DNA of 64,000 nt from Bispira polyomma (Eukaryota), in assembly GCA_965649765.1 (NCBI GenBank), contig OZ287756.1, positions 57,350,001-57,414,000 of the forward strand, read 5' to 3'. Positions 3,836 to 37,092 of this stretch are shown here, piece by piece. Both the position numbers and the translations under genes were made by a program. Positions within the stretch are counted from its first letter, which is position 1; each line of letters starts with the position of its first letter. The notes under the pieces were generated by a model. It was not told the DNA's origin, did not search any database, and worked only from the letters and a program-made list of their open reading frames with translations.

Positions 3836-4390
3836 CAGTGCCCTACCCAAGTAAACTTGTATATGTGATGTAACACAGGAAAATAACAAGAAAGGTAGGT
3901 TTTGGGGATATTAGCTTTAATTTTACTATGTTATCACTAATAATTATTTACATACTGTGTAGTAAGGGGCCACCTTAGCCCCAAGAGTTTAGGAGAAGTT
4001 AAGAGTTTAAGGTGACCTTAGCCTGAGGACAACAGGCCAAAGTGACCAAAGGGATTTTTAAAATTTAAGGGGGGGGGCCCTAGCTTGAAAGTTAGGGCTC
4101 CCTAAGATTGAGTTTAAGGTTAAGGGTAGCCCCAACTTGGAAGTCAGGGTTACCAAAGATTGAAATTTTTAAGGTTGAATTTAGGGGTACCCTAACTTGA
4201 AGTTAGGGTACCCTTAGAATGAGTTTAAATTTAAGAAAAATGGTAACCTTAGATTTTATTTGAGGTTGCCAAAAGAGATTTAGTAAAGATGTAAAAGGAT
4301 TAAATTAGTATAAGGTAAGGTGGCCCCAAAATATTTATATTTAAGCATTATTATATTTTATTTGTATATAATGTATGTAAATAAAGCCCC
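3836..4390 (-). repeat. E1 split direct repeat B2
   Basis: Near-identical to 5487-6043 (a few substitutions/indels). Confidence 0.95.
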
Positions 4391-5291
4391 CAAAAAGGGT
4401 AAAATCGAAGTTAAAAACCATGGTACTAGCTAATAGACTAAAAACTGTGCTGCTCACTAATAAAGTCCATGAGAGTAGCAAAAACTCACTAGACCTTAAA
4501 CCCCTAGCATATACAATTACCATGGCTTACAGAGAACATGCATACAGACATGAGCAAAATATAAATCGAGTAGCTGTTGTCTTCCAGGAGGGCAGTGCTT
4601 GCTTGTATAGAGTTCATTCCTGACTGAGCCACAAGAGATCCATGAATCCCGTATGCCTGAAACTACATGCTTACAGTTCAACATGTGATCACAAAGCTAC
4701 CAAATGCACTTGCACACAACATGATGTGCAATGCATTGTAACGTTATACTAGCAACCACACCAGGTTGCGAAATACAAACATTTTACAAATCCAGTCCTC
4801 GTAACGAGGAACAACATTACTAGTTATACTTTACATGCTATTATAACAACAAAAAAGGATGCCACTTCACATACTGTATACGTATAAATCATGCTGCCTG
4901 ACGCAGGATATTTGACAACATTATCAATTTGATATACAACAAAGGGAACACCCTGAAGACAATAAAGTAACGTACAATTGATAACAACAAAAGGAGACGC
5001 AACCTCAGCAGCAAGCAGCTACCTACAAGAAAGTGTTGGCCCCTAAGGGCCCTGGTGTTACCCAGAAAATATGGGAGATAAGTCACCTGAGGCCCCAGAA
5101 GGCCCCCAAGGGCGAGGAACTGTGAAGGCCAGCAGTAATGCATAACTCGTGGGCCCACAGCCCCGAGCCCCCACCCCCCTGCGCCAAGGTGTAAAGTGAG
5201 ACTTCAGGAACCCCAGGGACTGCATGCAGCACTCCAGGGACGGACGCATAGCTGAAAACTACCGAGGAAGTAGAAGGGGCAAGTGGGTGGG

Positions 5292-5486
5292 TAATGTAAA
5301 ATATTAAAGATGGCGTTGTTGCCTACATGACTTCACAAGTATAAGTGAGGATTCTAGCTAAAAAGCGGGAAACAGAGGTTAATTAGTACACAAATCGCCA
5401 ATTAGGAGAGGGTTTAAAGGGCATGAACCCAAGGAGGAAAATACTGGTAGCACTGAACTTGCTATCCCCTACGGTGCTACCCCGCA
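5292..5486 (-). repeat. E1 split direct repeat A2
   Basis: 195 bp, appears identical to 10829-11023; directly abuts B1. Confidence 0.95.
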
Positions 5487-6043
5487 CAGTGCCCTACCCA
5501 AGTAAGCTTGTATATGTGATGTAACACAGGAAAATAACAAGAAAGGTAGGTTTTGGGGATATTAGCTTTAAAATTTTACTATGTTATCACTAATAATTAT
5601 TTACATACTGTGTAGTAAGGGGCCACCTTAGCCCCAAGAGTTTAGGAGAAGTTAAGAGTTTAAGGTGACCTCAGCCTGAGGACAACAGGCCAAAGTGACC
5701 AAAGGGATTTTTAAAATTTAAGGGGGGGGGCCCTAGCTTGAAAGTTAGGGCTCCCTAAGATTGAGTTTAAGGTTAAGGGTAGCCCCAACTTGGAAGTCAG
5801 GGTTACCAAAGATTGAAATTTTTAAGGTTGAATTTAGGGGTACCCTAACTTGAAGTTAGGGTACCCTTAGAATGAGTTTAAATTTAAGAAAAATGGTAAC
5901 CTTAGATTTTATTTGAGGTTGCCAAAAGAGATTTAGTAAAGATGTAAAAGGATTAAATTAGTATAAGGTAAGGTGGCCCCAAAATATTTATATTTAAGCA
6001 TTATTATATTTTATTTGTATATAATGTATGTAAATAAAGCCCC
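5487..6043 (-). repeat. E1 split direct repeat B1
   Basis: Copy of 3836-4390; begins a few bases after the YR stop. Confidence 0.95.
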
Positions 6044-6052
6044 AAAGCCCAA

Positions 6053-7099
6053 CTAGGAAGTAGTAGAAGGGGCAAGGAGGGCCTTGAAGGTGAGGGCGAC
6101 TTGGTCAGATGCATTGTGATCCTGTACAATATATTTCCACACACAATCAGACGTCCAAGTGCCATGGCTCTGGATATCTTGAATTGGGACATTATTGTTG
6201 AAGGCCCAGGTGGCACCTGAACGCCTGAAGGTGTGGAAAGAAATGTTTGATTGCTGGAGGCCAAGACGCCTCAAAATTTGGGTGAGATTTTGCCTAGCTT
6301 GGGTGTCAATCATTGGAGACCATTTATGGTGTTTTTTAAACTGAAAGAGAGGAGAATTTTTGTGTCCAGGAGTAATAGCCAGCAAGGCCCTTGTGGCAGC
6401 CACCGGACAGAGACTAGAGCCACTTAGGCTCGGTATTTTAATAACTTTTGCTACATTCTTTGACTGCATTGTTTTAGACCACTTTATTATGAGGTGGAGG
6501 CCAGGGGAGGCAAAAAGTACGTCCCCCCGGGCCAATAGGACAAGTGGAGAGAATTGAGAGACAGCATGTGGAAGTAAGTTAGATATTCTAAGAAAAGAAA
6601 AGAAGGCAATGAGGTACAGAGCCTTGAAGATCTGCCCCATGTACATGCTGTCACAGATTTGAGTAATTTGGAGCAAGAGGGGAATGTCAATAATAGCGTT
6701 AATTTTAGCCCTGAAGGGGCTATTGAGTGTAAGAGCTTTTTGGTAATACTTAATTCTAGGATCTGCAAATGCAGAGACGTCAAGGCCATAGAGGGCCAAT
6801 TTAGCTTTAACTGCCAAAAGGTAGTTTGCAATGGAGGGGGAAGAGACCTGATTAACCACTAATACTTCTAAGAAAGCCAATATAATAAGGGAGGAGATAT
6901 TTTGAGGCCTGACCTGAGCAAAACTACAATAGGCCAAGAATATCCTAAACATATTTGTATAGGCCCTTTCAGTGGCTGGTCTAAAGGCCTGATGGGCTCT
7001 GTATGAGGCTTGTGTAGCAATCTTTCTTAGCTTGGAAGGTACATCTGCAATTAGATAGACCAATCTATTTCTAACATTGTGTCTTTTACTTTTACCCAT
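6053..7099 (-). CDS. E1 tyrosine recombinase (probable exon start 7044, spliced to gag)
   Basis: Catalytic motifs LRISNL (R), WSKT (K), HTFRR (HxxR), HGTW and terminal Y (WKYI) are all present. Confidence 0.93.
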   Translation of the reverse strand: MGKSKRHNVRNRLVYLIADVPSKLRKIATQASYRAHQAFRPATERAYTNMFRIFLAYCSFAQVRPQNISSLIILAFLEVLVVNQVSSPSIANYLLAVKAKLALYGLDVSAFADPRIKYYQKALTLNSPFRAKINAIIDIPLLLQITQICDSMYMGQIFKALYLIAFFSFLRISNLLPHAVSQFSPLVLLARGDVLFASPGLHLIIKWSKTMQSKNVAKVIKIPSLSGSSLCPVAATRALLAITPGHKNSPLFQFKKHHKWSPMIDTQARQNLTQILRRLGLQQSNISFHTFRRSGATWAFNNNVPIQDIQSHGTWTSDCVWKYIVQDHNASDQVALTFKALLAPSTTS

Positions 7100-9501
7100 T
7101 TGGGATTCGGTACCAGTTGTAGTAACTTGTCCTTATTACTGGCCGTGATCTGCCATCTGGAGAGGAGATCAGCCACTGTATTAAGTCTACCTAAAATGTG
7201 AATGGTTTTAAGGCTGATGTCATGGGAGGCTACGGCCATGAAGATGTTTCTGGCAATAGCTGCCAAAGTGAGGTCTTTAGTTTTGCCTGAATTTAGGATA
7301 GTGACCACGGCAGCATTGTCGCATTGCAATATTAGCCTCTTACCTGCCCAGGCTGACTTCCATAGCCTAATGGCAACTAGGATGTTTAACATTTCCAAAT
7401 GAACTATCATGAAATCTAGGTAGCCTAGAGGAATTTGGAATTGGTATACTTCATCATTACAACGGCCTCCCAACCCTTGGAGGCACGCATCCAACTGAAT
7501 ACAATCGGTAGTGGGTTTGTGTTCAAAGAAGGCTTTTCCATTAAATGTTGGTAAAAATTTTTTAAACCAATTTACATCCTGATGAAACTCAGGTGTGAGT
7601 TTTACTTTTTGATCCGAGCCTACAGATCTTAGGACGTCAAGCATTCGGTTTAAGAAAGCACGTGAAACTCGAACACATTTGGATACATATAACAATTTAC
7701 CTAGCAGTGACTGCAACTCCCTCTTACTGCAGCAGTTTCTTAATTGCCAGTCTTGCACAAGTGTGTTTATTTCTAGTAGCTTTTCATCTGGCAATGAGAT
7801 TGTCAAGTCATTTGTGTTAACTAAGACCCCCAGACACGTTACTGACGTGCTGGGGTGAACAAGTTTCTTGTGACTAATCGCAAAGCCTAGTTCCTGGAGT
7901 AAGTTTAGCAATATATCAAATGAACGTTTACTTTCTATGACGTCACCATAGCCGATTACGTCGTCGATATAATTGGTGACGTCATGTCCGTGACGTTTCA
8001 TGATGTACCTGACGGCGTCACTTAATCGCTGAAAAATTGCGCTCCCGTGCCGAAAACCAAATGGGAGGCAAGAGTCGACATAGTATTTGTCTAATTTCAA
8101 GCCTAGTAGATTGTAATCGGCTGGATCCATTTTCACGTGACGAAATGCCCGACTTACGTCAATTTTATATAGGAGCGTTCCACGTCCCATGCGACAGACT
8201 TTGTTTGTAATTGTGTCAATTGTGGGAAGGGTTAATGCAAACGCAGTACCGAGATACTTATCCTTGACTACAGCCGAGTTCACAGAGTTGCCATGAGGAA
8301 AGCTTAAATCTATGATAACGCGCCTGTGTGCGGCACCTGGTTTTTCCCTAGTCATAAAGGGAGAAATATGGAGGTTTTTTATGGGGGCCTTATGGAAAGG
8401 GCCCAACATGGCACCTAACTCAGTCTCTTCTTTTAAATACGCATGCACATCATCTGGAAATTGTGTTGCAGATGAATGATTCTGTTCTGTATGAGATAAC
8501 TTGCTGTCGGGATTAAAATCGAGGGGAAACCCATATCTTATCAAAAAAGGGAGTTGTTTATCCCAGTAGTCAGTCAAGTACTTTTCCCATACATCTGGGT
8601 TCAACTCAGATTTCAATTGAACTTGTGCCCCCATATAATTTGGGTAGTTGTCCTTCTTAATGTGAGTGTGTAATTCTAACAGAGACTTATCCGACTTTAC
8701 TCGTTTATCCGTTTGGGGAACTCGGAGGTCATTTAGCGGAATAAACCCATACTTATCTGTAGTTTGAGTATCCCATTGCTGGAACTGAGGCTGGTTGGAA
8801 GCCTGTTTTATAAGTTCCCTGTTTTTCGATTTAGTTTGTAGCTCTAGGTCATATTTGTCTGATTTGATTCCCCCAGTAGCTCGAGAGAGTATTTTAAAAC
8901 CTTGACCCTGGTTACAAGTATCTGGTAAATGTGTGACAGAGTTGTCACTAATGTGCATATAATGGTCATTGTCACTCAACGGGGAAAACCTATTGTGAGT
9001 GGAAACGGGCCATTTGCCCTGCATGTCTAATTTTGTGATTTCCAGCTTTTGGCCAAATTGATCACCTTTTGTTGGAGGGAGTTTACCCATTTTTGACATT
9101 ACATTATGCCTCTGTACACTTGTGAAAGGAGAAGCATCTTTTGTGAAAGTTTTAACACTCACTCTGTGGCCCCGTTCATGCTTTGTGGACCCCTCTGAAA
9201 TTTGGTTGTTATTTAAACATGGTGAATATTTAACGTGGTGACTTTGCCACCTCTGAGTCACATTGGCACTTTGTACAGAAAACTTTATGGCAGCAGACCT
9301 GGAGGGAGCCTTTCTTTTAACCACATCAGCATAAGATCTATTTACAAATTTGGCCCAATCTGCCCTCCAATGTGTACTGGCAGTATTACATTTAAGACTA
9401 TTATACACGGTTCTAGTAGGACAACCTTTAGAAATATTTACAACTTTTTGTGCAAGTTTTTTCTTGACCACCTCTTGTGTGGAGGAAACATGGGGTGGCA
9501 C
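7051..9501 (-). CDS. pol: E1 Pol: reverse transcriptase and RNase H
   Basis: RT motifs KIDVSRAFRH, LPFG, YIDD, CLG; RNase H motifs DACLQG, HLEMLN, CDN, ADLLSR. Lies in the -1 frame relative to gag. Confidence 0.95.
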   Translation of the reverse strand: MPPHVSSTQEVVKKKLAQKVVNISKGCPTRTVYNSLKCNTASTHWRADWAKFVNRSYADVVKRKAPSRSAAIKFSVQSANVTQRWQSHHVKYSPCLNNNQISEGSTKHERGHRVSVKTFTKDASPFTSVQRHNVMSKMGKLPPTKGDQFGQKLEITKLDMQGKWPVSTHNRFSPLSDNDHYMHISDNSVTHLPDTCNQGQGFKILSRATGGIKSDKYDLELQTKSKNRELIKQASNQPQFQQWDTQTTDKYGFIPLNDLRVPQTDKRVKSDKSLLELHTHIKKDNYPNYMGAQVQLKSELNPDVWEKYLTDYWDKQLPFLIRYGFPLDFNPDSKLSHTEQNHSSATQFPDDVHAYLKEETELGAMLGPFHKAPIKNLHISPFMTREKPGAAHRRVIIDLSFPHGNSVNSAVVKDKYLGTAFALTLPTIDTITNKVCRMGRGTLLYKIDVSRAFRHVKMDPADYNLLGLKLDKYYVDSCLPFGFRHGSAIFQRLSDAVRYIMKRHGHDVTNYIDDVIGYGDVIESKRSFDILLNLLQELGFAISHKKLVHPSTSVTCLGVLVNTNDLTISLPDEKLLEINTLVQDWQLRNCCSKRELQSLLGKLLYVSKCVRVSRAFLNRMLDVLRSVGSDQKVKLTPEFHQDVNWFKKFLPTFNGKAFFEHKPTTDCIQLDACLQGLGGRCNDEVYQFQIPLGYLDFMIVHLEMLNILVAIRLWKSAWAGKRLILQCDNAAVVTILNSGKTKDLTLAAIARNIFMAVASHDISLKTIHILGRLNTVADLLSRWQITASNKDKLLQLVPNPKWVKVKDTMLEIDWSI

Positions 9502-9531
9502 TGCATCACTGCAGTGCCTTACTCGTTTTTT
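9497..9531 (-). promoter_or_regulatory. -1 ribosomal frameshift signal, E1 gag/pol
   Basis: A_AAA_AAC in the gag frame (9531-9525), 6-nt spacer, then hairpin GGCACTGCA-GTGA-TGCAGTGCC. The -1 frame runs directly into pol. Confidence 0.8.
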
Positions 9532-10493
9532 AACGGATATTTTTTACAGTCTTTTGCAGGGTGGGGGTAAGACCTCCCATTTTGAAAGCATTGGTTACAC
9601 ACATGACTATATGACACACCTTTGAATTTGTGATCCCCTTTTTGGGGGCAAGTACCCCTCTGGAAGTACCTACATGGGATGGACTTCTCATGACTTTTCC
9701 TGGTGTTGGTTTGATAATTACTACTTGCAGTCTGGCTGACAACCCTTTGGGCATGAGCCCGTCTAATCCTGTCCAACTTGTGGGCATCTCCCCAGGTTAC
9801 CTTACCCTCTTCCATTTTACAGAGTACAACGGCATGGCTAGCCTTAGCCGAAGTCCAGGAAAAGTCATGAGCGTCCTCCATGAGGTCAGTGAGATAGTCC
9901 AACATTTGGTTTTTAACGTCTAAATTACTTTCATCTCTAGCTATGCTGGCAAAACCAGAGACCCACTGGGCCATTGACAACGCGTCATACGTAACTCGTG
10001 TTTTGTTTTGTCCCCCTAGTATAACGTTCTGAGGCCAAGCCACCTTATTCTTCACCCACAGAGTGTCGGGACCCCCTCTTTGAGATTTTGACGTACCTGA
10101 CTCGTTAATGGCCACCAATTCCTTAAGACGTGAATCCACTGCAGTCTGTAAGGAGTCGGATGTACGTAGTGTGTGTAGCGTCGGAACCAGTAGCTCAGAA
10201 GTGGTTTGGTCCGCCTGTCTAGGTTGGGCTGCACTCCCCGGGCTCGACGCCGTCAAAGCCTGGGCTCCATGTGAACTGCGATAAACTTGCTGCTCAACTT
10301 GGGTCATACGCCCACTTAATGCTTTGAGTTCAGTCAAAATTTGTAAATTAACGTCGGCAGCAGTTACACCATCGCCAGTCACAGAGTTCTGCTGGGAGGT
10401 TCCCACACCGATATGCATTTTACAGTTTTCATCAACGGGCTTAACATGACTAGTTTCACACTTGTGACAGTAATATTGTTTCCTTGGGGCCAT
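9519..10493 (-). CDS. gag: E1 Gag-like protein
   Basis: N-terminal CxxC..H..C, coiled coils and C-terminal Cys/His zinc knuckle; homologous to ORF1 of E3 and E4. Confidence 0.9.
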   Translation of the reverse strand: MAPRKQYYCHKCETSHVKPVDENCKMHIGVGTSQQNSVTGDGVTAADVNLQILTELKALSGRMTQVEQQVYRSSHGAQALTASSPGSAAQPRQADQTTSELLVPTLHTLRTSDSLQTAVDSRLKELVAINESGTSKSQRGGPDTLWVKNKVAWPQNVILGGQNKTRVTYDALSMAQWVSGFASIARDESNLDVKNQMLDYLTDLMEDAHDFSWTSAKASHAVVLCKMEEGKVTWGDAHKLDRIRRAHAQRVVSQTASSNYQTNTRKSHEKSIPCRYFQRGTCPQKGDHKFKGVSYSHVCNQCFQNGRSYPHPAKDCKKYPLKNE

Positions 10494-10828
10494 AGCCTCT
10501 GAATAATATAAGAACTCGTGGCTTTGATACCTGCAACTATACTAAAGGAACTGTAACGCGATAATCTGAATTGAATTATGTAATCAGGCAAATAGCCGTG
10601 AATTGGATGCAATATAATTGATTTGACCACGTTCCTTTACCACCGCTCAAACGAGCATATAATCGCAGGACTCAAAGTAGAGTAAAACACAGGAATCCAG
10701 CACAAGCACTGCAGATCAGGTCCTCCTTAGTGTGTAGCAGCACTTAGTGAATCATTTGTTGCATTTCTTGTTTCCATCACACAGATAATAAAATCAGTGA
10801 AGTAAAAATAAAACACATAAAAGTAAAA

Positions 10829-11023
10829 TAATGTAAAATATTAAAGATGGCGTTGTTGCCTACATGACTTCACAAGTATAAGTGAGGATTCTAGCTAAAA
10901 AGCGGGAAACAGAGGTTAATTAGTACACAAATCGCCAATTAGGAGAGGGTTTAAAGGGCATGAACCCAAGGAGGAAAATACTGGTAGCACTGAACTTGCT
11001 ATCCCCTACGGTGCTACCCCGCA
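10829..11023 (-). repeat. E1 split direct repeat A1 (5' end)
   Basis: Matches 5292-5486. Confidence 0.95.
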
Positions 11024-11209: not shown

Positions 11210-13570
11210 ACAGATGGTGAATATACACAACACCATGCCATGAATCTGACACATGATTTACAGCAAATGACTTCTATAGATGGAAGTAAGAACTTCCCTA
11301 ATGTATACAATGTAATATACGACCATTTTGTATCAGTATTTTGTAATGATATTTTAATAAATGATAAATACCATAAACAAGGTACCTTAAAGTAAATGTA
11401 ATGTCAATTCCAATGATTATCCACTGTACAATACATTTACATGTGCTGCTTACTATAAAATGGGTCAATCAATGATCCATTTCCATGCTAGTTATAGTAT
11501 AGAAGATAGTATTGCATTTTTTATGGGGACAAGTCATATTTACACCAAACAGCGGATTGGAAATGTGTTCCTTATATGGTTACAGACATTGAAACCACAG
11601 TGTACAAAAAGACATAGGGATATAGGACAGGGAATGTCCGGTCAATAACTATACTGACACTCCTACCCATAACAGGCCTATAGCAGTATCAGGAGTAGAA
11701 AAAAAAAGAGTATACATAAATGGGAACGAGTCACATTTACACAAAAATGCTGAGCATGTCCCTTATAAGGTAAAATACATTGAAAGATCATGTGAACAGA
11801 GAGTCAAAAGCACACATGATACAGAATGTCAGGTCAATAACTATACTGACAGTTGTAGTATACTGACAGCAACAAGTATACAGTAGTAGAGTTGATAATA
11901 ATTCCTTCAATAACAGGAATAATAAGGGTTGTTTAGTTAGACAGGGTTATAACTCTACCACCATTAATAAACCTGATAATGAGGTGGAAGCACGTGATTT
12001 TGGATTTATGCCACATGGGCCTTCTCCACTGGTAATTCCTTTGGGCTTTAATACTATTGCCTTTACACCTAATGTGACATGGTTTATAAAAATTCATAAT
12101 ATAGTTAAATCACAGCATTGTGCTAATTATAAAGGGGCACGGTTTACAGTTTTCTCAGGCTTAAATATCCCCTTTTGGAGATCCAAGATTAAAAGGTTAT
12201 ACTTTAGAAATATCAGGCGAATATGTACAGTTTGGATTTCCACTTAATGTGGACTATAGCATTTAATTATAATACAACAATTGTAAATCACAAATCAGCA
12301 TTATGTGCACCTGTAGGCGTGGATGAGTATTTCAAAACGGAAGTTGGCCATAGAGCAATGATTGGCCCAATTTTTGAAAATCCATTTTCGGAAATGCAGT
12401 TTTCGCTATAAATGGCTCGACCTAAACCAGATGGAGGTACTCGTGTTATAGTATATACGTCCTGGTCACCAGGCCAAGGTGTTAACAGCTGTGTTTCAGC
12501 TAATATATATGATGACATGCCTTTTACGTTGAAATATCCCAACATAGATCAGGTAATGTAAAAAATCAATTTGTTTGGTCATTCAACCAAACTATATAAA
12601 ATAGATTTACAAGGCGCATTCGTAACTTAAGGATAGATCTTTTTGATTACCCTGTTTTAGTACTTAAATGGAAAGATAATACATATGTAGATGTTGCATG
12701 ATCACGGAATTTGGGTAATGAATTATTTAGATGATTATATTGGAGCTAGCCCTCCTCACTTAGGTGAAAGTCATTTCACTTCCCTTAAAACCCTTCTTGA
12801 TAATTTGGGTCTCCCCGTCAATATGAAGAAATTAGTACATTAACTATACCTCTTAGTAAGATAATGGAAGTTAAAAAATTATGTACTAAGTGCTACTAGA
12901 AACCAGTTGCAAATGTTAACAGGCAAGTTATTATCCATACACAGGTGTTTAACCTCCCCGTGTATTTATAAATTGAGTTTTACAGGTACTCAGATCTGCC
13001 CCAACTAGAGTCAGTATAGTTCTCCCTGATTATTTCTATAAAGATATAGCCTGGTTCAACCAGTTTGTGGAGGTGTTTAATGGAGTCGTTGCAGTACAAG
13101 AAGATACTAAGGCTAAATATACAGTATATGTTGATGCCTCATTAGAAAAAGTCGGGGGTTTTCATAATAACTTGGTTTATTTTACAGATATTCCAATATA
13201 TGTAAAATATTGTAGATGAATTGTTCATTTGGAAGCTGCTAACATTTTGATTGCTCTGAAAATATGGTGTAAAACTGCAGAAATGCAAAAGTAGATATTT
13301 AGTGTGATAATCTGGCCGTGGTCTACGTATTTTCTTCTGGAAAATTAAAAGACCCTTGGCTCATGGCTTGCCTACGCTCTGTGCACTACCTGGCTGCCTA
13401 TAACATAGAAATATGTGCTAAACATAGACCAGGAGTAGAAAATAGATATGCAGACATACTGTCGCGATGGCATGCATATCAAGATTGTAACACAACAGAG
13501 GTTAAGTTATTCAAAACATGTAAGTGGGAGATAGTAAATGGATAAATGTTAATACCCAATTTTCATATCT
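11210..13570 (+). pseudogene. pol: E2 pol (RT/RNase H) pseudogene
   Basis: Fragments ANYKGAR..SGLNI..W, NHKSA, AMIGP, YLDDYIG, VDASL, HLEAANILIALK, CDN and ADILSRW, broken by many stops and frameshifts. Confidence 0.85.
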
Positions 13571-13682
13571 AGAAACCCTGTTATTATATAATATGTTACC
13601 ACCTCCTCTGCCCATCCCCTAAAGTGGGGTGGGACTGTCTATAAAGAGACATATACTGCCAAGATTGTGCCATGTATTTCAG

Positions 13683-14635
13683 GAACATCTATGGCGGCCA
13701 TCTTGGACAGAATTGCTTTACAGCGCATCCCCTTTGGCATGAGACCTCATTCAACCAAGGCTTATGACGCAACGTTTCGACTATTCCTGGCGTTCGTGGT
13801 ATACATGAAGTTTGCTGTACCTCACAACTTAAGGACCATCACCTGTTATGTGGAGTATCTTATACAGATTAGATTGAGGGCTGCCTCAGTAAACAATCAA
13901 ATTTCAACGTTGTCTCACTATTTTGGGTTGTATGAATGGCCTAAGTATGGCCTGTATTGCATGAAATTACAGATGCTAATTAAATCCATCAAAATCAATG
14001 CCCCTTTAAAACAAAAAATTAAAGGTGTTTTGATTATTACGTTGTTGAAAAAATTGATAATAACTACTACTAAGACTTTTCTAAATCATGAAAATTTATA
14101 CAGCTCTGTTCTTGAGTGCTTTCTTCGGGTTTTTCGATTGGCATCATTACTTTCAAATGCCGTAAAAGAGTAAAAACACAGGCTGACTTAGTGCTGGGGC
14201 CCCCAGGACCCCATGTAGTAATTACCTGCGCAAAAAATATGCAGAGTTCAGGACAATTTTATGTAGTGTAGTTACCTATTCTATCTTACAAAGACATTTG
14301 TCCCATCAAAGCATTGAAAACTTTATTGCAAAAGATGCCAAGTAACAGTGAATCGCCTCTCTTTCTGATTAAAACTAAAAGTGGAAATGTTCCTCGTACT
14401 GCTTTCAAGACTAGATCATTTCTAAAACTTGCTATTATAAAAATTGGCTTATAGCCAATAAGCTATGACTTTTATACTTGCAGTAGAAGCGGGGCTTCAC
14501 TGGCATTTGATCAAAATGAAGATTTACAAAATATAAGGACTCATGGAAACTGGAAAAGTGAGGCGATCTGGACATATTTGAAAGTCCACCCCTGAAGCAT
14601 AGTTCCTAAAACATTCCAAAAACTTTTACTATATA
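13683..14635 (+). pseudogene. E2 tyrosine recombinase pseudogene
   Basis: MRPHSTKAYDATFRLFLAF, FRLASLL, CPIKAL, RSGASLAF and HGNWKSEAIWTYL, with frameshifts and stops. Confidence 0.85.
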
Positions 14636-21816: not shown

Positions 21817-24800
21817 CTAAATAAAGGTATGCAAGAAAAATCCAGAGAAAGTTGTACGACTGTAACCGTATATTTGGTTATTGTTCGTTCGTGAGATGAT
21901 GCTCACCATCTGATCAGAATCACACTGGATCACAGCATAATTCCCACACTGGAGGGCTACATTAAGGACATTGTCATTCGAACAGTATGTATCAGCAATG
22001 TACCTACCATCAACGTATATGACCCCATTTAGTGAATCATCAGGTCCTATGTCATATGCGTACAACATGAAAGCAAAGAAATACATCCCACTGATGGGGC
22101 AGGTGAAAACACTTGCCGAGCTGTTATAGGCTCCCCCTTCATTGACAAGCACAGTGTTGAATGTAATGATTTCCCCCACTTGTGGAAAAATCCACCCCAG
22201 AGTCAAATAGGCAAAGAAGCTGATATTCTCATTGGCACTGTGTACTGAAAGTGACAACATGATAGCATTGTATTGTAGTGTATATGTTTATTGAGCGTTA
22301 TTAATGCTAGATATAATTTAAAGAGTAGCATCCAAACAAAATTAGCACAGAGGATTTTGCAAAAGTCATAAGCAATGATGTAGTTAGATGTCAGCTCAAT
22401 TGCAGAGGTTGTCACATATTTTGCAAATATATTTTTTGATGCAATACTAAAGGTGATATTTCTGGTATTCCTGATATGCTAATTTAGAACCCCAAATTGT
22501 CTACACACATGACAGATCGAGATTACAACCCTGGACTTTGGATGTGGGACCCAAAACACTGGCCACAGGAAATAATGAGTTACACATAACAGAGTCATAC
22601 CTGTGTTTTTTTAAGTTGCTACTTTCTGTTGATATCACCTGAACATCATCGCAACCATTTACGGTAGTCTCCCTGGTTACGACTTCCATCCGCCCACTAT
22701 TTTTGATTTTCGATTAACGTTTTGGGTTTGTTGCGCCTTAGAATTTGTTGTACAAAGATTAAGCGCTATAAAAGTACGACTAGATTAGATTAGATTAGAT
22801 CCTTCAGGCTGAGCAATTCATTCTTTATCAATGCCACATCCTTGACCACCTCTTGTAATACAAAAGTATAAAAAGTATTTTTTGATGCAGACTAAAGGTG
22901 ACACATCTGGTATTGCTGATATGCTGAATTAAAACACCTAATTGTCTACACAATTGAAGGATCAAGATTAGAACCCTCTACTTTGGATGTGGGACCCAAA
23001 AAGTTTGCTGCAGATGATAATGAGTTACCCATAACAGAGTCATACCTGTTTTTTTTAAGTTGCTACTTTCTGTTGATATCAACTGAACATCCTCCTCCAG
23101 GCTGAGCAATTTATTCTTTATCAATGCCACATCCTTGACCAAGTCTTGTAATACAACTGTGACATTACCTGGCTGTATGACTGGATTGATGGCAGTAATT
23201 GAACATATTTGGAGCAGAAAATTCACAGCAATGAATGACCAACACAGACCTGTGCTCTAAATGTATAAAAAATAAAATACAACAGCTTACTGGCTCTGAT
23301 CGCTGTTTGAATTATGATAATAATGTCATAAAGAAAAAAACATACAATAGTGAATTAATTAATGAGGTAAAAATAACAAAGGCATGCTTACAATTCCTTC
23401 TGGGGGGATATGGAATTGCTCCAATCTTCACATGTTATGTTTCTGCATTATTTGGTTACAAACCATGCAAGGTTTGAATCCAGGAATATTACAAAACAAT
23501 CAGAAACAATCCAATCAGACGATAGCAAAAAAGCAAAAAGGTGTTGTAACAGTGCCTAAAAGTTTAGTACTTTGAGGCAAAAGTAAAATAAAATAATTGA
23601 ATGATATGTATAATAACCAATAATGAAATATTTCTCTTTTATTTTAGAACATAAAAAGTATTGTGTTTTATTTATAAACAGGTTAATGCTTGAGACTTTT
23701 GCTTAAACACTTAAGACACTTCTGTGGTGAACGCCAATCCCGCAAGCCCTTGTTTATTCCCAAGATTTGCCTCTATTTTCAGGATCGCCCATTCGGTATT
23801 TCCTCAACTTCTAAAGTTTGAGATTTAGTCATTGCCATCCACGTTTACAGATGTAAACAAAACTACGTAAATCCTAAAAATAGAGTGAGGGGAGGGCATG
23901 GTGGATTTGGTCCAATGACCATGGGAAGGTTCTGGATGTGGATCACGTGGGGAGGCCACGCTGGATCTCTCTTTCTCACATTTGGAAACAAAGGGACTGG
24001 ACGTTTTGATCTGGATCTAAAATTAACTATAGTTTAATAAAGGCACCCTTTATGGGTAGGTGGACACATGGGGAACTATCACTATCATTTCATCTATTAT
24101 CAGCAGTTTGAACCACCACTCTGTTGGGCTACAACAGCCAAGGAATAGTTATTTCTAGTCCCAAGGAGGCAGGTGAGGAGCCGGCCAGATTCTTGGGGGG
24201 ACTAGCTGGGTTACCCCATATTGGTTGCCTGTCATTCATTTTGGTAGGTGCCTTGTAACTTTGACCTTGATCTGTAATCTCGTTGTACCCTTTTGTTCCC
24301 AGTCCAGGTATTTGCTGAACGTACCCATGATGTGGTTGGGAGTTCCAGGGGTTCTGTGTATACAGATACCATCCCAGGACTTTGCCACATGGTACAGTAA
24401 GGCAAGTATGGGAGGACAAATAAGATTGAGCACCCCATTCCAGTATAAGGTTGGGTAAGGTTTAAGTATACGGTAGGTTTCAGTTAATATATGGGAATAT
24501 GGGAGTTATGACGATTTCTTGTAGAGCAGTGGGATTTTCGTAGAACTTGTGTTATAGTATAGAGACATTTAAATATGCTTGAAAGATAATAAACTTAATA
24601 ATTGTAGTGTGTTATAGTATAGAGACATTTAATTAGACTTGAAAGAAAGTAAACTTATTAATTGCAGTATTTCTAAACCTACGGACATTCCCCCACTTGT
24701 AATTGATCAATATCGGTAGCAAGTACACCAAAACTGCAATTTGTGTGTGTTTTAAAATCACCTCTTGTAATTCCATTAAGGCTGTTTTATGTGTGTATAC

Positions 24801-26245: not shown

Positions 26246-28429
26246 ACACAGGCACAATGTCTATTCTATATTTTATAGCTACAGTTGTACATGAGAAATT
26301 ATACATATGGTCAAACATGTCAAGCTCTAACTTTCTTGTAATCAATTGTAATCAGCTGCAAACGAGTTTCAACTGGCTTCAATTGATAGCAAGAGTACAA
26401 CATTCGAAAGGTCACATTAAACATCATTTAAATATGCAAATTTATAATAATAGAAGCTAATATTTCTGTCATGTCATTTATTAATCTAATAGATATGTAA
26501 ATATGTAGCAAAAAATCAGTTGTATATTAAGCAATACACTGTTCTTTGTATATTAATTTTTATAAATTTTCAATCTCTCATAAGCCATACTTGGCATGCT
26601 GTGTAACAGGTTAAAGTATGATAAAAAGTCTATCCATCTATCTATCACTGGGCTAAAATAAGTCTACAGCAAATAAAATCTTAACAGAGCGGTTAAACAT
26701 ATGGATGCCTTTATTGGCAATACCGGTTATTCAGATGAATAAATTATTATAATATTGTATATTTTATTGATTGCGTGTAATAGAATAATAGTACATCCAA
26801 CATATTAAATAGCTTCATAGAGTTAAGGCATGACAGGGTGAAAATGAATTCCCAATACAGTGCACATGATGCTAACAGTGCCCTAGTGTGGTGAGATTGA
26901 ACATGTGGAAGTACGACAGAATATGATATAAAGTTTGGAGGTTTTTCTGTACAAGTTAGTTTATCTATACCCAGAGTTACAGTGTGTAAAACAATAGATA
27001 TAAATAAAATCCTATAGGAGCTCACATACATATAATAATAATAGTTTATTTTCATACTAATAGTACATAAAAAAGATATAGATACAGATGAATAGAACAA
27101 ACATATAAACATAATTACATATCATTACAAATAAAGATAAATGAAAAAAAAATTTACACTATTTTATTATAACTTTCATCAATTAGTACACAAGAAATTT
27201 ATAATTTCAATAATTTTTTCCTTGCTAAAAGCCTTTTTACTTGCATATTTTGGTTTTCTGATGATATCAAACCTCACACCATCTTCAGCTTCACAATTTG
27301 ATAATACAAGGCATATCACAAGGTCTGACATCATATTTGAATATCCATGAAATCATAAAATGGTCAAAAACCAACCAAAACAGATTTAAGGGGCTATGAA
27401 CTTTACAGCATAAATGCGCTGCCGAGATATTATGCTGCATTTATTCGATTTTATTTTAGCCTATATATACTCACTTTACCTGCCTTATAACTATAGTTTA
27501 CTCGCAGTTTTAACCATTTTAGATGTAGAAACAATTTAAAACTTCAATATTGTATTGTGACGTCACATAATTTTAAATCTATAGTGAAACGTCATATTTG
27601 TAAACAATTCTCGCAGAGACATTTCTATCGTGATATAATATAAGTATTGATCCAGCATATATGAAGGTATTATATACACTACACAACTTTAAAATATGTG
27701 TATACTATTTTGAATGAATTACATTTTTAAATAGGTTTTCTTATTTTATATGAAAGAAGAATTGAAAATACTCTTTCTTTCAGGATATGGTAACTTATAT
27801 AGTTTTCTAAAAGAGACCCGGTTTTTGTATTTTATTTGAAAAAATATATTATTTAAAATAAAGCTGAAGATTTCCTTTCTCTAGTGATTTACAATACCAC
27901 AGTATTAATTCCTTCTTGTGTGTGAATTGTGTAACGTTTGTGAACCATGTTCTTACAAATGTTAACCATCTTTTTTTTCAAATTTATACACACTGCCATA
28001 TGTATTATATGTCCTAAAATATATATTAAAGTGAGTCATAAAATCTATAAATTAGCATATAATTAAAATAGTTTTTTTTTGTATTATTTCTACTGACAAA
28101 AATGGAAATATGTTATCTATAAATCGAGTTTAAGGCACAAAAATAAAAGTTGTGCAGTTTGTGAAAGGCTCCAACTGATGAAACGTGGGAATTGGCGATT
28201 AGTTTATGTGTTTACGTTTTGTAAGCGAACGCCCTCAGCGTTCGTGGCCTCAGTTCTGGGGTACCAGCCTGTTCTACTATTATGGGATGGTGTACGACTA
28301 TATAAGGCTCTCCTTTTTCAAATTCTCCCGCCTTTATCGTTTCGTCAGCAGAGCAACAACTAGTTTAAAATTTGTTTGGGTGACATTTTGTTTATGGTGT
28401 TTACGGTTTTATAATTTACAATATCTTAG

Positions 28430-29518
28430 TTGAAACACCATCTAGTCATGCCTGTCTTTGATTGTACTCAATGCTTAACCAAACATGAGCGTCCTGTCGG
28501 GCGAAATTGCGTTACTGCAAAAATTGTTGACTCTGTCTCTGGGGAGGAGATCGATGCTGCCTCAGACACTGAACCCGCAAACGGTGAGTCCGGCGATGCA
28601 GTTACCAATGCTATACTACTTCAACTGCACTCGATGAACGAATTAATGGTGAAAATGGACCAGCGGGTTCAGAGGAATGAGGCAGCATTGGCGACGAACC
28701 TTACCAGTAGTCAGGCAAGTCATCAGGTCCCCGTTCAGGCAAGTAGTAGTTTGATTAGTTCTAGTGTTGTCAGGCCTGCTAGTTGCTCTGCTGACGTAGG
28801 TAAGAGCCCATCTATCGCTACGTCCGACAGTATAATTCCTGGCATAGATTTTTTAAACCAGAATGCCCTAATACAGCTCCAAGTGGAGCAGAGATTGAAA
28901 GATCTCAAAACGTTGAATGAGACCACCTCGCAAGGTAAAATGAAGTCCCAGCGTAGTGGGGCGAATGAGGTATTGGTAAAGAAGGTCACCGCCTGGCCTC
29001 AAAATTATGTGCTGACGGGTAGTTCTAAGTCTCGGCCTAGCTACGATGAGTTAACCGTGTTGCAATGGGTGTGTGGTTTCGCTCGGATCGCCCAAGAGGA
29101 GAAGTCGATCGAAGTGAAGAATGCCATGCTGGATTACATGGGGGGTCTTATGGAGGATGCCCAGGATTTTTCTTGGGAGTCAGCTAAGGCCTGCCATGCA
29201 GTCGTATTGACAAGTATGGAGATGGATAAGTTAGGTTGGCTAGAGGTAGATAAGATGGATCGAATCCGAAGAGCCCATGCTCAGCGCCATGTGTCGAACA
29301 GTAGAAATTCCTCTGGGGCGAATGGACGGCTAGGTAACTCTAGTAGCAGTAAATCTGGCAGTCGTAAAGGTGCAATGTTTTGTCGCTTTTATCAGGAAGG
29401 AAATTGTAGATTTCCCAGCTCTCACAATACTGGAGGTCAGTTATATAAACATCATTGTGAGACATGTGAGGGTAGCCACAAGACTAGTGAATGTCATAAG
29501 AAAGGGGCAAAAAACTAA
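28430..29518 (+). CDS. gag: E3 Gag-like protein (ATG probably at 28448)
   Basis: CTQC..H..C N-terminus, WPQN, LMEDAQDFSWESAK and C-terminal zinc knuckle; homologous to E1 Gag. Confidence 0.9.
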   Translation: MKHHLVMPVFDCTQCLTKHERPVGRNCVTAKIVDSVSGEEIDAASDTEPANGESGDAVTNAILLQLHSMNELMVKMDQRVQRNEAALATNLTSSQASHQVPVQASSSLISSSVVRPASCSADVGKSPSIATSDSIIPGIDFLNQNALIQLQVEQRLKDLKTLNETTSQGKMKSQRSGANEVLVKKVTAWPQNYVLTGSSKSRPSYDELTVLQWVCGFARIAQEEKSIEVKNAMLDYMGGLMEDAQDFSWESAKACHAVVLTSMEMDKLGWLEVDKMDRIRRAHAQRHVSNSRNSSGANGRLGNSSSSKSGSRKGAMFCRFYQEGNCRFPSSHNTGGQLYKHHCETCEGSHKTSECHKKGAKN

Positions 29519-29543
29519 GGGGCCACTGCGTTGATGCAGTGGC
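29509..29543 (+). promoter_or_regulatory. -1 ribosomal frameshift signal, E3 gag/pol
   Basis: A_AAA_AAC, 6-nt spacer, hairpin GCCACTGCG-TTGA-TGCAGTGGC; the -1 frame continues into pol. Confidence 0.8.
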
Positions 29544-31938
29544 TAAAAGGGGTGAGCAAAAAAGTAGGTTTGTCTATAATACTAAATTTAAGGATGTACA
29601 GTTATTTGAGAGGTCTGTGTGTCAGAAAATGTGTAAATATGTGAAGGGCACCAGACCAGGCCTGAGCTATAGCCAGGCGTTGCAAAAGAATGGCCCAGTT
29701 CAAAAGTATGGGTGTGTAAATAGAAGTGTTAATAATGTACAGGTAAAACAGGCAAGGTTTGACAAGAGTAAGGTGAAGATAGTACATAACAAAAGTGACA
29801 CCTTGGTGAGGCCCCTTGGTACCTCTGTGAGCCAATTGACACCCATTGTGAAGCCTGACACGTGTGCGAAACAAGACAAGGGGATAACAAAGGAGGTCAA
29901 TTGTTCGAGATTGAATGGGGGCGAAGCGAGGCGGGTCAATGGGGGTGTGGCTGTCCTCCCTCTTGCTAACAGGTATACCGCTCTAATGTCGCTGCCGGTC
30001 GATGACAGTGAAAATGTTGACGAGCCCGTTCGATTCCTTTCTGTTACTAGTGACAAGCCCGTTAACCGAGGCAAGGCGAGGAGTAAAACTGCTTCCGAAG
30101 ATAGCCCGGGAAGTTTTGAATGTTCCGATAAATACGCTTGTGCTTTGAAACAGAAAGTAAATAAGAAAGGCATGTTAGCTAAGGCTGCCTCAAATCCTAC
30201 TTACAGAAAATGGCAAGCTCAAAGTCAATATGCATATGGATTCACTCCTCTCTCTGCTCTGGGCTGTGAGATTGCAGATCATGGTGGGGGAGGGCCCGAA
30301 CTTTCCATAGTGGAAATGCATGACTTAATTCGGGCTGATGGGAGACACAATTATGAAGGGTTGCAAATCCCTGTTCCCTCTCAATTAAGACCAGAGAGTT
30401 GGAAAAAATACCTTAAAAATTACTGGGATTGGCAATTGCCTCTCCTCATAAAATATGGATTCCCCCTAGATGTGGATCATTCAGTTAAACTGGAATCCAG
30501 TGAGATTAACCATAAATCGGCTGAGGAATATCCACAGCATGTAGAAGCTTATATGCAAGAAGAATGTGAGTTAGGAGCCATGTTGGGGCCATTTGACAAA
30601 CCTCCCATTCCGGGCTTGCATTGTTCTCCCCTTATGACGAGACACAAACCGAATTCAATTAACCGGAGAGTAATTGTAGACTTAAGTTGGCCTCAAGGGG
30701 GGTCGGTTAATGCGGGGGCATCTCCTTCCTCTTACTTGGGTGTTGAATTTTTGCTGTCTTACCCATCTATTGATAATCTCACTAGTGAGGTGGTAAAATT
30801 GGGTAGAGAATGCGAGATATTCAAGGTCGACATAAGTAGGGCGTTCCGTCACGTACCCATTGACCCTGGCGACGTTGACCTCCTAGGTCTAAAGTGGAAG
30901 TCCTATTATGTGGACAGATCTCTGCCGTTCGGATATCGTAATGGTAGCACGATTTTTCAGAGAATTTCGGATGGCGTGCGTTTCATAATGCACTCTGAAA
31001 ATCATAATGTCCACAACTATATCGACGATTTCTTGGCGATTTCTGTTCCCAGCAAAATTCAAAAAACTTACCTGAGATTGCAAGAACTGCTACAAGAATT
31101 GGGGTTGACAGTAAGTCAGAAAAAATTGGTTCCTCCCAGCACACAGGTTGTCTGCTTGGGCATAGTGGTGGATACCATTCGTGGTACTACTTCCATCCCG
31201 GTTGAGAAATTAAGTGAAATTAAATATAAGTGTCAGGAATGGAAATCCAAAAAATTCTGCACTAAGAGGGAGCTCCAGTCGTTACTTGGCTTGTTATTGT
31301 ATATTTCTAACTGTGTAAAGTATGCTCGTGTCTTTTTGAATAGGATGCTGGAACTGTTAAGAGATAATTACACCAGAAAGTATATTACCATCAACCCTGA
31401 ATTCAGGCGTGACTTAAATTGGTTTACTACTTTTGCAGAACAGTTCAATGGAGTCTCTTTCTTCATGCCTAAGCCCATAACTGGTGAGATTGAATTAGAT
31501 GCCTGCCTTACTGGAATGGGGGGTATTTTTGAGAAACAAGTGTACCAAATTAACATTCCTCCAGAAATGAGTGAGGTCAATATTGCTTCTTTGGAGATGC
31601 TTAACATCCTGGTAGCTTTAAAATTGTGGGTTCATAAATGGAAAGGTCATAGAATATTGGTCAGATGTGATAATCAGGCAGTTGTAAGTGTCTTACAGAC
31701 AGGGCGCACCAGAGATCCGGACTTAGCCACGTATTCTAGGAATATATACATGTTAGCTAGCAAGTTTAATATTGATATTGTTGTCATACATATTTTGGGT
31801 AAAGAAAATAAAATTGCAGATCTGCTGTCAAGATGGACTGAAACTGAAGCCAACCATTTGTTGTTATTTAGGTTAGCTGGGCCTGTCCAGTGGCTGCCTG
31901 CTTGCCACAGTTTATTAAAAGTTAACTCACTTATATAG
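29539..31938 (+). CDS. pol: E3 Pol: reverse transcriptase and RNase H
   Basis: KVDISRAFRH, LPFG, YIDD, DACLTG, LEMLN, CDN, ADLLSR. Confidence 0.95.
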   Translation: MAKRGEQKSRFVYNTKFKDVQLFERSVCQKMCKYVKGTRPGLSYSQALQKNGPVQKYGCVNRSVNNVQVKQARFDKSKVKIVHNKSDTLVRPLGTSVSQLTPIVKPDTCAKQDKGITKEVNCSRLNGGEARRVNGGVAVLPLANRYTALMSLPVDDSENVDEPVRFLSVTSDKPVNRGKARSKTASEDSPGSFECSDKYACALKQKVNKKGMLAKAASNPTYRKWQAQSQYAYGFTPLSALGCEIADHGGGGPELSIVEMHDLIRADGRHNYEGLQIPVPSQLRPESWKKYLKNYWDWQLPLLIKYGFPLDVDHSVKLESSEINHKSAEEYPQHVEAYMQEECELGAMLGPFDKPPIPGLHCSPLMTRHKPNSINRRVIVDLSWPQGGSVNAGASPSSYLGVEFLLSYPSIDNLTSEVVKLGRECEIFKVDISRAFRHVPIDPGDVDLLGLKWKSYYVDRSLPFGYRNGSTIFQRISDGVRFIMHSENHNVHNYIDDFLAISVPSKIQKTYLRLQELLQELGLTVSQKKLVPPSTQVVCLGIVVDTIRGTTSIPVEKLSEIKYKCQEWKSKKFCTKRELQSLLGLLLYISNCVKYARVFLNRMLELLRDNYTRKYITINPEFRRDLNWFTTFAEQFNGVSFFMPKPITGEIELDACLTGMGGIFEKQVYQINIPPEMSEVNIASLEMLNILVALKLWVHKWKGHRILVRCDNQAVVSVLQTGRTRDPDLATYSRNIYMLASKFNIDIVVIHILGKENKIADLLSRWTETEANHLLLFRLAGPVQWLPACHSLLKVNSLI

Positions 31939-31961
31939 CACGTGTTAGTCATGTTTTCCAG

Positions 31962-32947
31962 ATATACAACCTGTGGCCATCTCCTTGATGCAGAAAGCTT
32001 GTGACAGACTTGAACTTGCCTTCACCCCTGCCACTAACAGAGCCTACAACAGAATGTTCAGGCTGTTCTTGGCGTTTGGAGCCTTTATGTCATGGCCTCC
32101 TAAAAAGGTGACTGTGTTATATCTCCTAGCATATTTAGAGTTTTTAACGTTTAATGGTGTGTCGGCGAGTCAAGTTCTTAATCATCTTTCTGCCATTAAG
32201 GCAAAGTGTGTCCTCTTCCATATATCTGTAGACGCTTTTTCTGATAAAAGAATCACCTATTATAATAGAGCTTTGGCAATGCATAGACCATTGCAAGTAA
32301 AACTTAAGTCAATTTTCGACGTCCAGTTGTTGAGGTCTCTTATTATAAAGTGTGACAGCACTTACATGGGTCAAATTTTTAAAGCAGTTTATCTTACCAG
32401 TTTCTTTTCCTTTCTGAGGCTGTCTAACCTCTGTGCTCATTCGGTTGCTGCTTACTCTCCTCTTAAGCAGCTTGCAAGGGCTGATGTCCTTTTCAAGCCA
32501 GGGTATGCTGTCCTCATTGTTAAATGGTCTAAAACCCTTCAGAACAATAATGCCGTTCGTTTGCTTACCATCCCAGCTTTAACCAATTCCATTTTATGTC
32601 CGGTTCAAGCTTTAAAGAACATACTGTCTATTTCTCCCAAAGGGAAAGATTTGCCCTTGTTTCAATTTAAGCAGAATGCCATTTGGACTCCCCTCACTGA
32701 TACTAGGGTTCGCAGGCATCTTAAGAATGTCTTACTAATGCTGGGCCCGCAGTACTCTGGCTTGACCTTTCACGCCTTCAGGCGTTCAGGTGCCACGTTT
32801 GCCTTTAACAATAATGTCACCATTCAGGACATCTAAAGGCAAGGCACCTGGACGTCCGATTGCGTCTGGCGTTACATTTCGGATTCTGCCAATGCTGGTA
32901 CTCAAGTTGCCGATTCCTTCAAAACTATTCTACAGGATACGCACTAA
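31962..32947 (+). pseudogene. E3 tyrosine recombinase with a premature stop
   Basis: LRLSNL, WSKT, HAFRR, then in-frame TAA at 32834-32836 before RQGTWTSDCVWRY. The catalytic Tyr is lost; natural stop at 32947. Confidence 0.9.
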
Positions 32948-32958
32948 AATTTTTGGGT

Positions 32959-33502
32959 TTGGTGGCATGACTGTAACATCTAGTCAGTTTAACATTGCAA
33001 GTAGCATATTAATTACCTGTAAACTAAATGAATTAACTGTGGGCATAAGGTCCCCCTGTATTATTAAAGTACATATTGTACTCATGTAATTAAAGTTGCA
33101 CTTAAACCCTAAGTCAAACTTTAATTTGTTAATCTTCAAAGTCATATTTAAGTTTCAACTTAAATCAAATTTTCTAAATTCAACTTCTTTATTAGTTAGG
33201 GTTACTTAAACTCATTCTGGTTTAACCTAAAGTCCTAAACTCAGTTGAGTTAAGGGGACCTTATGCTCACACAAAGTGTATATCATGTCAAAGAACTGTA
33301 CATAAATATCTTAGTAATAGTAGCTGTAAATATGAAATAAAATATATTTAACCGCAGTATTGTCTTTCTATGACTTCTTCGGTTAATTGAGTTTCCTCAG
33401 GCACTACTATTATGGGATGGTGTACGACTATATAAGGCTCTCCTTTTTTAAATTCTCCCGCCTTTATCGTTTCGTCAGCAGAGCAACAACTAGTTTAAAA
33501 TT
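32959..33502 (+). repeat. E3 B1 and A2 internal repeats
   Basis: B1 matches 34243-34691; A2 matches 28274-28372; they overlap at CTACT (33404-33408). Confidence 0.93.
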
Positions 33503-34242
33503 CCCACCCTCCACTTAACCCCTTTTAGTTGGAATGTTGCTACTATTAGTACGAATATATTAGTATGGATGTCTTAAGAAATGTTGCATATATTGTTGTT
33601 AAATGCTACTGTAGTTAGCTATGTATTTTCAGACAAATGGGAGTCAGAATAACTTTGTCAAATGCCTCACTGCCTTGTTGGAGTCCACCACTGGGACCTG
33701 CCGTTTGTATGCGACATCAAGTGATTGTGTCATCAGAGTGTAGAACAGTCTGGCAGACTAGTGTCTGGGCCGGTGTAATATGTCAGTGGTGGACTCTGCG
33801 TAAAATATTATAATTTACATTATCTACATTTTACTTCAAAGTTTACCTTCTTTTATACAAGTTTACATTACATGTGTCAATTCATTGGATAAGGGGTCGT
33901 ATTATTCGATCACGTAAGGGCGTTGCGGTTTGAGCTAGATGTAATGTAGCATAATATGGGCTAAACGTATATATAAGTTTCTTTTAGTAATCATAATGTG
34001 GTACTTACCTGGGGCTTTATACATTATTGTTTATAAATTTATTGGGCAGGATGAAGTTTACATTGGTTTTAAATTCCTCAATCATAGTGCATGAACTATT
34101 TTATAACATTTTACATCTTTTACAAATTATTGATTGTAACTTTTGTTATTAATATTTTAAATATCAGTCGCAACTGAGTTGCTACTGGGGTTCTGATGTA
34201 CTATGGTTGCGGTTCTGTGATATGCATGATAGAGTATGCGGG

Positions 34243-34702
34243 TTGGTGGCATGACTGTAACATCTAGTCAGTTTAACATTGCAAGTAGCATATTAATTAC
34301 CTGTAAACTAAATGAATTAACTGTGGGCATAAGGTCCCCCTGTATTATTAAAGTACATATTGTACTCATGTAATTAAAGTTGCACTTAAACCCTAAGTCA
34401 AACTTTAATTTGTTAATCTTCAAAGTCATATTAAGTTTCAACTTAAATCAAATTTTCTAAATTCAACTTCTTTATTAGTTAGGGTTACTTAAACTCATTC
34501 TGGTTTAACCTAAAGTCCTAAACTCAGTTGAGTTAAGGGGACCTTATGCTCACACAAAGTGTATATCATGTCAAAGAACTGTACATAAATATCTTAGTAA
34601 TAGTAGCTGTAAATATGAAATAAAATATATTTAACCGCAGTATTGTCTTTCTATGACTTCTTCGGTTAATTGAGTTTCCTCAGGCACTACTCCGAGGAAC
34701 TG
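34243..34702 (+). repeat. E3 split direct repeat B2
   Basis: Near-identical to B1, plus an 11-nt terminal CCGAGGAACTG. Confidence 0.93.
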
Positions 34703-36048: not shown

Positions 36049-36234
36049 CAGTTTGCCCAAGTAAAGGTAAGTCAAGGTCAGGATATGAAGAGAGGTACTA
36101 TATGTGGTTGGAAGTGATGTAATAGGTTAAATGTTTGAGAGAATTTATTTTCTATACATGTTAGAATCTATTTACAAAATAATAGTGGGTTAAAACCTAC
36201 TTTTAAAAGTTATAAAATAATTTTTAAAATGCCC
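36049..36234 (-). repeat. E4 split direct repeat B2
   Basis: Matches 36899-37084 with a few substitutions. Confidence 0.93.
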
Positions 36235-37084: not shown

Positions 37085-37092
37085 AAGCCAAA

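Follow-up and report, generated by a model that had tools for sequence, protein, structure and literature searches.

In the literature that we reached, no study shows how tyrosine-recombinase (YR) retrotransposons produce Pol. The 64-kb window analyzed here (the whole stretch of DNA under study) contains two elements, E1 and E3, whose pol lies in the –1 frame with respect to gag. In both elements, a 35-nt cassette occupies the end of gag and the start of pol, and it offers a defined, mutable candidate signal for Pol production.

The elements that carry this junction were characterized together with a third element, E4. E1 spans positions 3836 to 11023 on the minus strand, with split repeats A1 (11023–10829), B1 (5871–5487), A2 (5486–5292), and B2 (4218–3836); these repeats are 99–100% identical, indicating that E1 is young. 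Its gag-like ORF (9519–10493, minus strand) encodes 324 aa from the first ATG with a Cys/His-rich C-terminus, and is followed by pol (7051–9543, reverse transcriptase and RNase H, –1 frame with respect to gag) and the recombinase ORF (6053–7132), both on the minus strand. E3 spans 28274 to 34691 on the plus strand, with repeats A1 (28274–28372), B1 (32956–33408), A2 (33404–33502), and B2 (34240–34691) and plus-strand ORFs for gag (28430–29518), pol (29500–31938), and YR (31949–32836). The E3 recombinase ends early, at 295 aa compared with 379 aa in its relative L131. E4 spans 36049 to 42382 on the minus strand, with repeats A1 (42382–42165), B1 (37084–36899), A2 (36898–36681), and B2 (36234–36049), belongs to a readthrough-type clade, and is interrupted by premature stops near 41100 (gag) and near 38460 (pol). 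Pfam profiles RVT_1, RVT_3, and Phage_integrase were matched in E1 and E4, while the E3 recombinase had no Pfam match but aligned with the others.

In all three elements, a gag-like protein is followed on one strand by RT/RNase H and then by a tyrosine recombinase, within split direct repeats arranged A1-ORFs-B1-A2-B2 and without inverted terminal repeats. This ORF order and repeat arrangement resemble Ngaro elements (order DIRS) as defined in the available portions of PMC8547959, PMC4157794, and PMC9210276. The ORFs gave no Dam methyltransferase match, and pol ends soon after RNase H; since PF05869 matched nothing genome-wide, this negative has no positive control, and the search supplied no outgroup for the trees. 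Papers draw B1A2B2 as contiguous, whereas a unique stretch of 0.45–1.1 kb separates A2 from B2 here (5291–4219 in E1, 33503–34239 in E3, and 36680–36235 in E4). As our trees included no named Ngaro reference, the elements are called Ngaro-like. Strong hairpins of 13–14 bp were also seen in or beside the B repeats of E1, at about 4072–4103 and 5725–5756 on the plus strand and near 4229 and 5882 on the minus strand.

The E1 cassette begins with the slippery heptamer A_AAA_AAC, in the gag frame, at 9531–9525 on the minus strand. It is followed by the 6-nt spacer GAGTAA (9524–9519), which contains the gag stop codon (9521–9519), and by a hairpin of 9 bp with a 4-nt loop (9518–9497; stem 9518–9510, loop 9509–9506, stem 9505–9497). 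The E3 cassette (29509–29543, plus strand) consists of the heptamer at 29509–29515, the gag stop at 29516–29518, and a hairpin at 29522–29543 with stem arms at 29522–29530 and 29535–29543. The preliminary description had placed the heptamer at the gag stop or one codon before it, and this was confirmed: in E3 the heptamer runs straight into the stop, and in E1 one codon lies between them. The 6-nt spacer was found in both copies, as was the G-C/C-G swap between their stems. In both, AAA AAC is read in the gag frame and the –1 frame runs into pol without a stop, again as described. The two hairpins have a predicted folding energy of –16.3 kcal/mol each, and 55-nt segments at the E1 and E3 cassettes gave folding z scores of –3.2 and –4.3. 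AAAAAAC occurs 40 times in the window (21 on the plus and 19 on the minus strand), and only the E1 and E3 sites precede a stem of at least 8 bp at a distance of 5–9 nt.

Conservation of the cassette was evaluated across a 1.04-Gb genome. A strict cassette pattern gave 372 matches compared with 0 in the reversed control, and a looser pattern gave 1,297 compared with 1, these counts being of copies and not of independent events. Selection of copies by gag protein only provides a stronger test. All 30 close copies of E1 had an exact in-frame heptamer no more than 30 nt from the gag stop, as did 15/20 copies at 64–89% gag identity and 17/20 at 60–74%, both sets of 20 being hand-picked from 150 listed. 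The 19 core bases were perfect in 26/40 and carried at most two changes in 34/40. Inside the bodies of 14 gag ORFs, no in-frame A_AAA_AAC was present at any of 4,808 codon positions. Among 39 copies with a gag match, 31 had the heptamer in the gag frame, and 24 of these 31 had a –1-frame stop within 30 nt upstream, so that any shift is confined to the heptamer site.

The gag sequences of 12 family representatives provided the background rate of change. The third base was kept in 0/33 columns with an invariant amino acid, and identity at 4-fold sites was 0.31. In the cassettes of the same representatives, the codons AAA, AAC, CAC, and GCA were unchanged in 12/12, and TGC and GTG in 11/12. Synonymous sites in gag are thus saturated while the cassette codons are fixed, indicating that the constraint acts on nucleotides. 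The junction is known as DNA from one genome only, and evidence from outside it is at the protein level; no relatives of the gag alignment were found in the scanned metagenome and viral contigs.

The stem was analyzed in an alignment of 42 diverse copies, in which 40 loci were hand-picked for diversity from the first 100 of the 1,297 matches. The pair at the base of the stem core, left free by the search pattern, was paired in 41/42 copies (CG 24, GC 14, and AU, GU, and UG 1 each). The covariation score was 0.156 compared with 0.048 for shuffled alignments, and none of 500 shuffles reached it, although this test ignores relatedness. Pairing was 89% in the true register and 16–47% in slid registers. 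The six core pairs showed almost no covariation in this alignment, where the search pattern had fixed or nearly fixed them. Because the G-C/C-G swap follows the split between the E1 and E3 sub-clades, it amounts to roughly a single event, to which one A-U case is added. The outermost pair held in 15/42 copies (mismatched in 27/42) and the loop-closing pair in 30/42. The conserved element is thus a stem of 7–8 bp; the 9-bp stem with tetraloop described earlier is correct for both copies in the window but not as the unit conserved across the 42 copies. The distance from the heptamer is 6 nt to the 9-bp stem and 7 nt to the conserved 7-bp stem, and the constant length of the spacer is partly forced by the reading frame. 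No pseudoknot signal was detected at the –1 site (loop-to-downstream pairing of 4.23 compared with 4.20 shuffled).

The start of Pol was compared next to the cassette. The absence of a nearby ATG in pol, claimed previously, holds for E1, whose first Met lies 145 codons past the slip site, and is weaker for E3, where the distance is 41 codons. The start codon is not conserved across copies; the position of the first AUG varies between codons 13 and 161, or there is none, and some relatives, E3 included, have an in-frame AUG 13–47 codons into pol. The Pol N-termini had also been called unalignable. E1 and E3 indeed align over the cassette peptide only (E 0.34), but a motif of the E1 N-terminus is conserved within its sub-clade. 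This motif, at codons 39–73 (about 9415–9310, minus strand), precedes the first AUG, which is codon 145. At E ≤ 1e-3 it has counterparts in 30 of 120 outside Pol proteins, and it has no Pfam match. Because it is conserved ahead of the first AUG, the region must be reached without an AUG. The peptide is short and aromatic/basic within an otherwise variable N-terminus.

A sister –1 clade was reached through an outside Pol protein, and its loci were selected by Pol protein. The exact heptamer was present in 16/20 of these loci, and pol lies in the –1 frame in most copies. Their stem differs, with GCUGY...GGCAGC arms, 7–11 bp by eye, and a long loop. A core A-U pair is replaced by G-C, and the His/Ala-Val (HC..AV) peptide encoded by the cassette is lost. 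With the core pair compensated and the peptide lost, it is the structure and not the peptide that has been kept. The gag stop can be as far as 28 nt downstream, within the stem, and yet the heptamer and stem keep their distance. In one family of this clade (L243–L246), a run of C within the stem after the heptamer measures 6, 7, 8, or 9 nt. Owing to the length of this run, a long intact pol ORF is in frame 0 or +1 in 3/4 copies, reflecting either assembly error or slippage at the run.

The cassette is likely a programmed –1 ribosomal frameshift signal predicted to give a minority Gag-Pol fusion, a reading to which we assign a probability of about 0.88. The preliminary description had proposed such a signal, and this proposal is supported, since every computable feature was found and nucleotide conservation goes far beyond synonymous drift. 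In the predicted mechanism, a ribosome stalled by the hairpin would hold Lys- and Asn-tRNAs on AAA AAC, and both tRNAs would slip back by one base in tandem. A few percent of ribosomes would then continue into pol, and the remainder would stop and release Gag. According to the portion of PMC5009743 available, A_AAA_AAC is one of the heptamers on which mammalian ribosomes shift most readily. The accessible text of PMC3203594 reports, for another system, efficiencies of 3.5% for a 6-bp hairpin (–13.1 kcal/mol) and 13% for a 10-bp hairpin. A shift-prone heptamer combined with these hairpin efficiencies leads to an expected Gag-Pol level of a few percent. The short stem, its frequent outer mismatch, and the lack of a pseudoknot sign suggest that the efficiency may be low.

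The cassette resembles the hairpin-type Gag-Pol –1 signals of retroviruses (e.g., HIV-1) and LTR retrotransposons, with which it shares an X_XXY_YYZ heptamer, a spacer of 6–8 nt, a stem-loop, and pol in the –1 frame. Unlike elements with retroviral –1 signals, the host elements have no protease or DDE integrase, and the gag stop lies in the spacer. The stem of 7–9 bp is also shorter than the 10–12 bp given for natural hairpin stimulators in the part of PMC3203594 seen.

Four other explanations were considered, and none of them accounts for the heptamer, the spacing, and the pairing together. Pol could be obtained through splicing of the conserved gag donor to an AG within the stem's 3′ arm (GCAG|TG); the product would be a Gag(N)-Pol protein, and the cassette would be an acceptor. 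In E1 and E3 this AG is in phase 1 of the pol frame, matching the phase-1 gag donor, and the retention of YR splice signals in these elements is clear. However, the stem AG has no pyrimidine tract (pyrimidine 0.42 and T 0.16, compared with pyrimidine 0.65 at the YR acceptors), other AGs occur just upstream of it, and the corresponding AG of the sister –1 clade was in phase 2 in 6/6 loci checked. Splicing into the stem would also leave both the heptamer and the pairing without an explanation, and we consider this route improbable.

Pol could instead be translated separately, by reinitiation or by internal or non-AUG initiation past the gag stop that the hairpin would enhance. The position of the gag stop in the E1/E3 clade, 0–1 codon past the heptamer, would suit this arrangement, and several copies have an early pol AUG. 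It is nonetheless unlikely to be how Pol is made, since no start codon is conserved and, in the sister clade, the stop moves while the heptamer-to-stem distance stays.

It is highly improbable that the motif is kept for a reason unrelated to pol expression, such as RNA packaging, a reverse-transcription signal, or the peptide itself (the K-N end of Gag or HC..AV of Pol). A peptide constraint draws on the recurrence of HC..AV in outside proteins, where HCxxAV or a close variant was found in the first 15 residues of 7/120 Pol proteins (six regex matches plus P0046 by eye). The core stem is also nearly invariant instead of freely covarying. Against this, synonymous positions are fixed at the cassette where gag is saturated, the sister clade loses the peptide and keeps the stem, and the motif is absent from clades with pol in frame 0 or +1. 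Both –1 sub-clades retain a Cys in the Pol frame, and some protein constraint may contribute. Slippage of RNA polymerase on the run of six A's present at the site, adding one base so that some transcripts have gag and pol in frame, is scarcely credible, since productive polymerase slippage usually takes longer runs than this short one and the final C and a hairpin at ribosome-footprint distance are conserved as well.

The programmed –1 frameshift predicted for E1 and E3 is one of three junction types in this genome. A second type, absent from the preliminary description, was found in E4, where gag and pol share one frame across a UAG. The E4 junction (40718–40739, minus strand) consists of an in-frame UAG-G and a conserved C/A-rich motif and is a predicted readthrough site. 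In the E4 clade (L061–L090 and L141–L150), UAG-G was present in 24/30 gag-selected loci and in 10/10 full-length loci. The linear motif RC_CRA_CNA_CYA_G starts 8 nt past the stop and had 275 genome matches compared with 17 in the control. Within about 125 nt downstream of the E4-type UAG, the local consensus structure contained 0 pairs. The in-frame UAG followed by G is shared with type III readthrough (UAG-G in gammaretrovirus and luteovirus), as described in the available text of PMC3542737. The E4 clade, however, has a linear motif and no local 3′ structure, and we do not file it as type III.

A third clade (L151–L200), with pol in the +1 frame, was found through a recombinase remnant at 13592. 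This remnant belongs to a decayed fourth YR element at about 12285–14580 on the plus strand, which retains remnants of pol and recombinase and has its nearest recombinase relatives in the +1 clade. In this clade gag ends with GUU, then UAA, UAG, or UGA, and then a pyrimidine, and a conserved Gln-Arg/Lys/Gln codon pair (CAG-NNN) precedes the GUU. GUU_stop with the next ORF in +1 was found in 26/30 gag-selected loci, 15 of these 30 being from one young family. GUU_stop was also found in 10/20 YR-selected loci, six of the latter having no gag end. The base after the stop was C in 5/10 YR-selected and 0/26 gag-selected loci, and U otherwise. The part of PMC3542737 at hand describes a +1 slip in the P site, GUU to UUU, at the stop for the closterovirus GUU_stop_C, which the GUU_stop_Y of this clade resembles, likewise with the next ORF in +1. 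The clade consists of animal retrotransposons, in contrast to a plant virus, and often has a 3′ U in place of C, and we do not equate the two sites.

Gag is homologous between the –1 and in-frame clades, with 23–27% identity, and a joint profile of the two finds the gag of the +1 clade. A tree of 43 selected RT/RNase H sequences resolved three clades with one junction type each (ultrafast bootstrap 96, 100, and 100). At least two switches of junction type are implied by this midpoint-rooted tree without outgroup, which does not give their order. In the other two clades, the same problem of the Gag:Pol ratio would be dealt with through UAG readthrough in one and a +1 slip at GUU_stop in the other.

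The recombinase is predicted to be expressed by a different route. All three clades keep two phase-1 splice signals, a donor within gag and an AG that closely follows pol, and these signals predict a spliced Gag-YR product. The predicted sites are a donor GT at 10096–10095 within gag and an acceptor AG at 7046–7045 in E1 (minus strand, both phase 1), a donor at 28935 and an acceptor before 31962 in E3 (plus strand), and a donor at 41299 and an acceptor before 38069 in E4 (minus strand). An automated count found donors in 27/35 copies and missed five at the edge of the search window; the acceptor count of 42/42 used a loose window and overstates. None of 15 joints, out of 22 on E1 in three DNA-like contig runs, linked donor to acceptor, which is uninformative on splicing. 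The recombinase would come from a separately spliced RNA, with the N-terminal half of Gag fused to YR. Poulter and Butler 2015, as quoted in the available part of PMC13003380, proposed programmed frameshifting for the Ngaro YR ORF. In the elements analyzed here, the YR junction instead has splice signals, and the likely frameshift signal sits at gag/pol. A frameshift proposed for the recombinase is now placed at the gag/pol junction.

No description of a gag/pol recoding signal in Ngaro or DIRS elements was found in the literature searched, much of it available in part; supplementary annotations (e.g., in PMC9210276 and PMC3266345) could bear on novelty. DIRS, Ngaro, and tyrosine recombinase had 0 occurrences in the part of the PMC5009743 text searched. 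A suggestion of gag/pol frameshifting may already be contained in Poulter and Butler 2015 and Goodwin and Poulter 2004. The mechanism is canonical; what is new is the setting in which it is found and the exchange of three recoding modes at a single junction. Ngaro elements probably follow a retrovirus-like expression strategy without protease or integrase, in which Gag comes from unspliced RNA, Gag-Pol from recoding, and Gag-YR from splicing. The recoding step would be swapped among three classical modes, namely a –1 slip at A_AAA_AAC with a hairpin, UAG-G readthrough driven by a C/A-rich motif without structure, and a +1 shift of closterovirus type at GUU_stop; clades with all three modes, each recently active, would coexist in a single animal genome. 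Since the junction is homologous, the translation system is shared, and natural variants number in the hundreds, the three recoding modes enable a comparison of how one signal replaces another. With the GUU_stop clade, the closterovirus +1 mechanism would become open to tests in animal cells.

Outside the YR elements, the window contains two C1q-domain exons (21817–22287 and 53158–53631, both on the minus strand) and a single-exon rhodopsin-family GPCR (44703–45689, minus strand); these genes mark the DNA as that of an animal. Tandem repeats of 58 nt and 63 nt, together with an acidic ORF that has a 33-nt coding repeat and runs off the window, are located at 48054–48886, 60580–60855, and 63182–64000.
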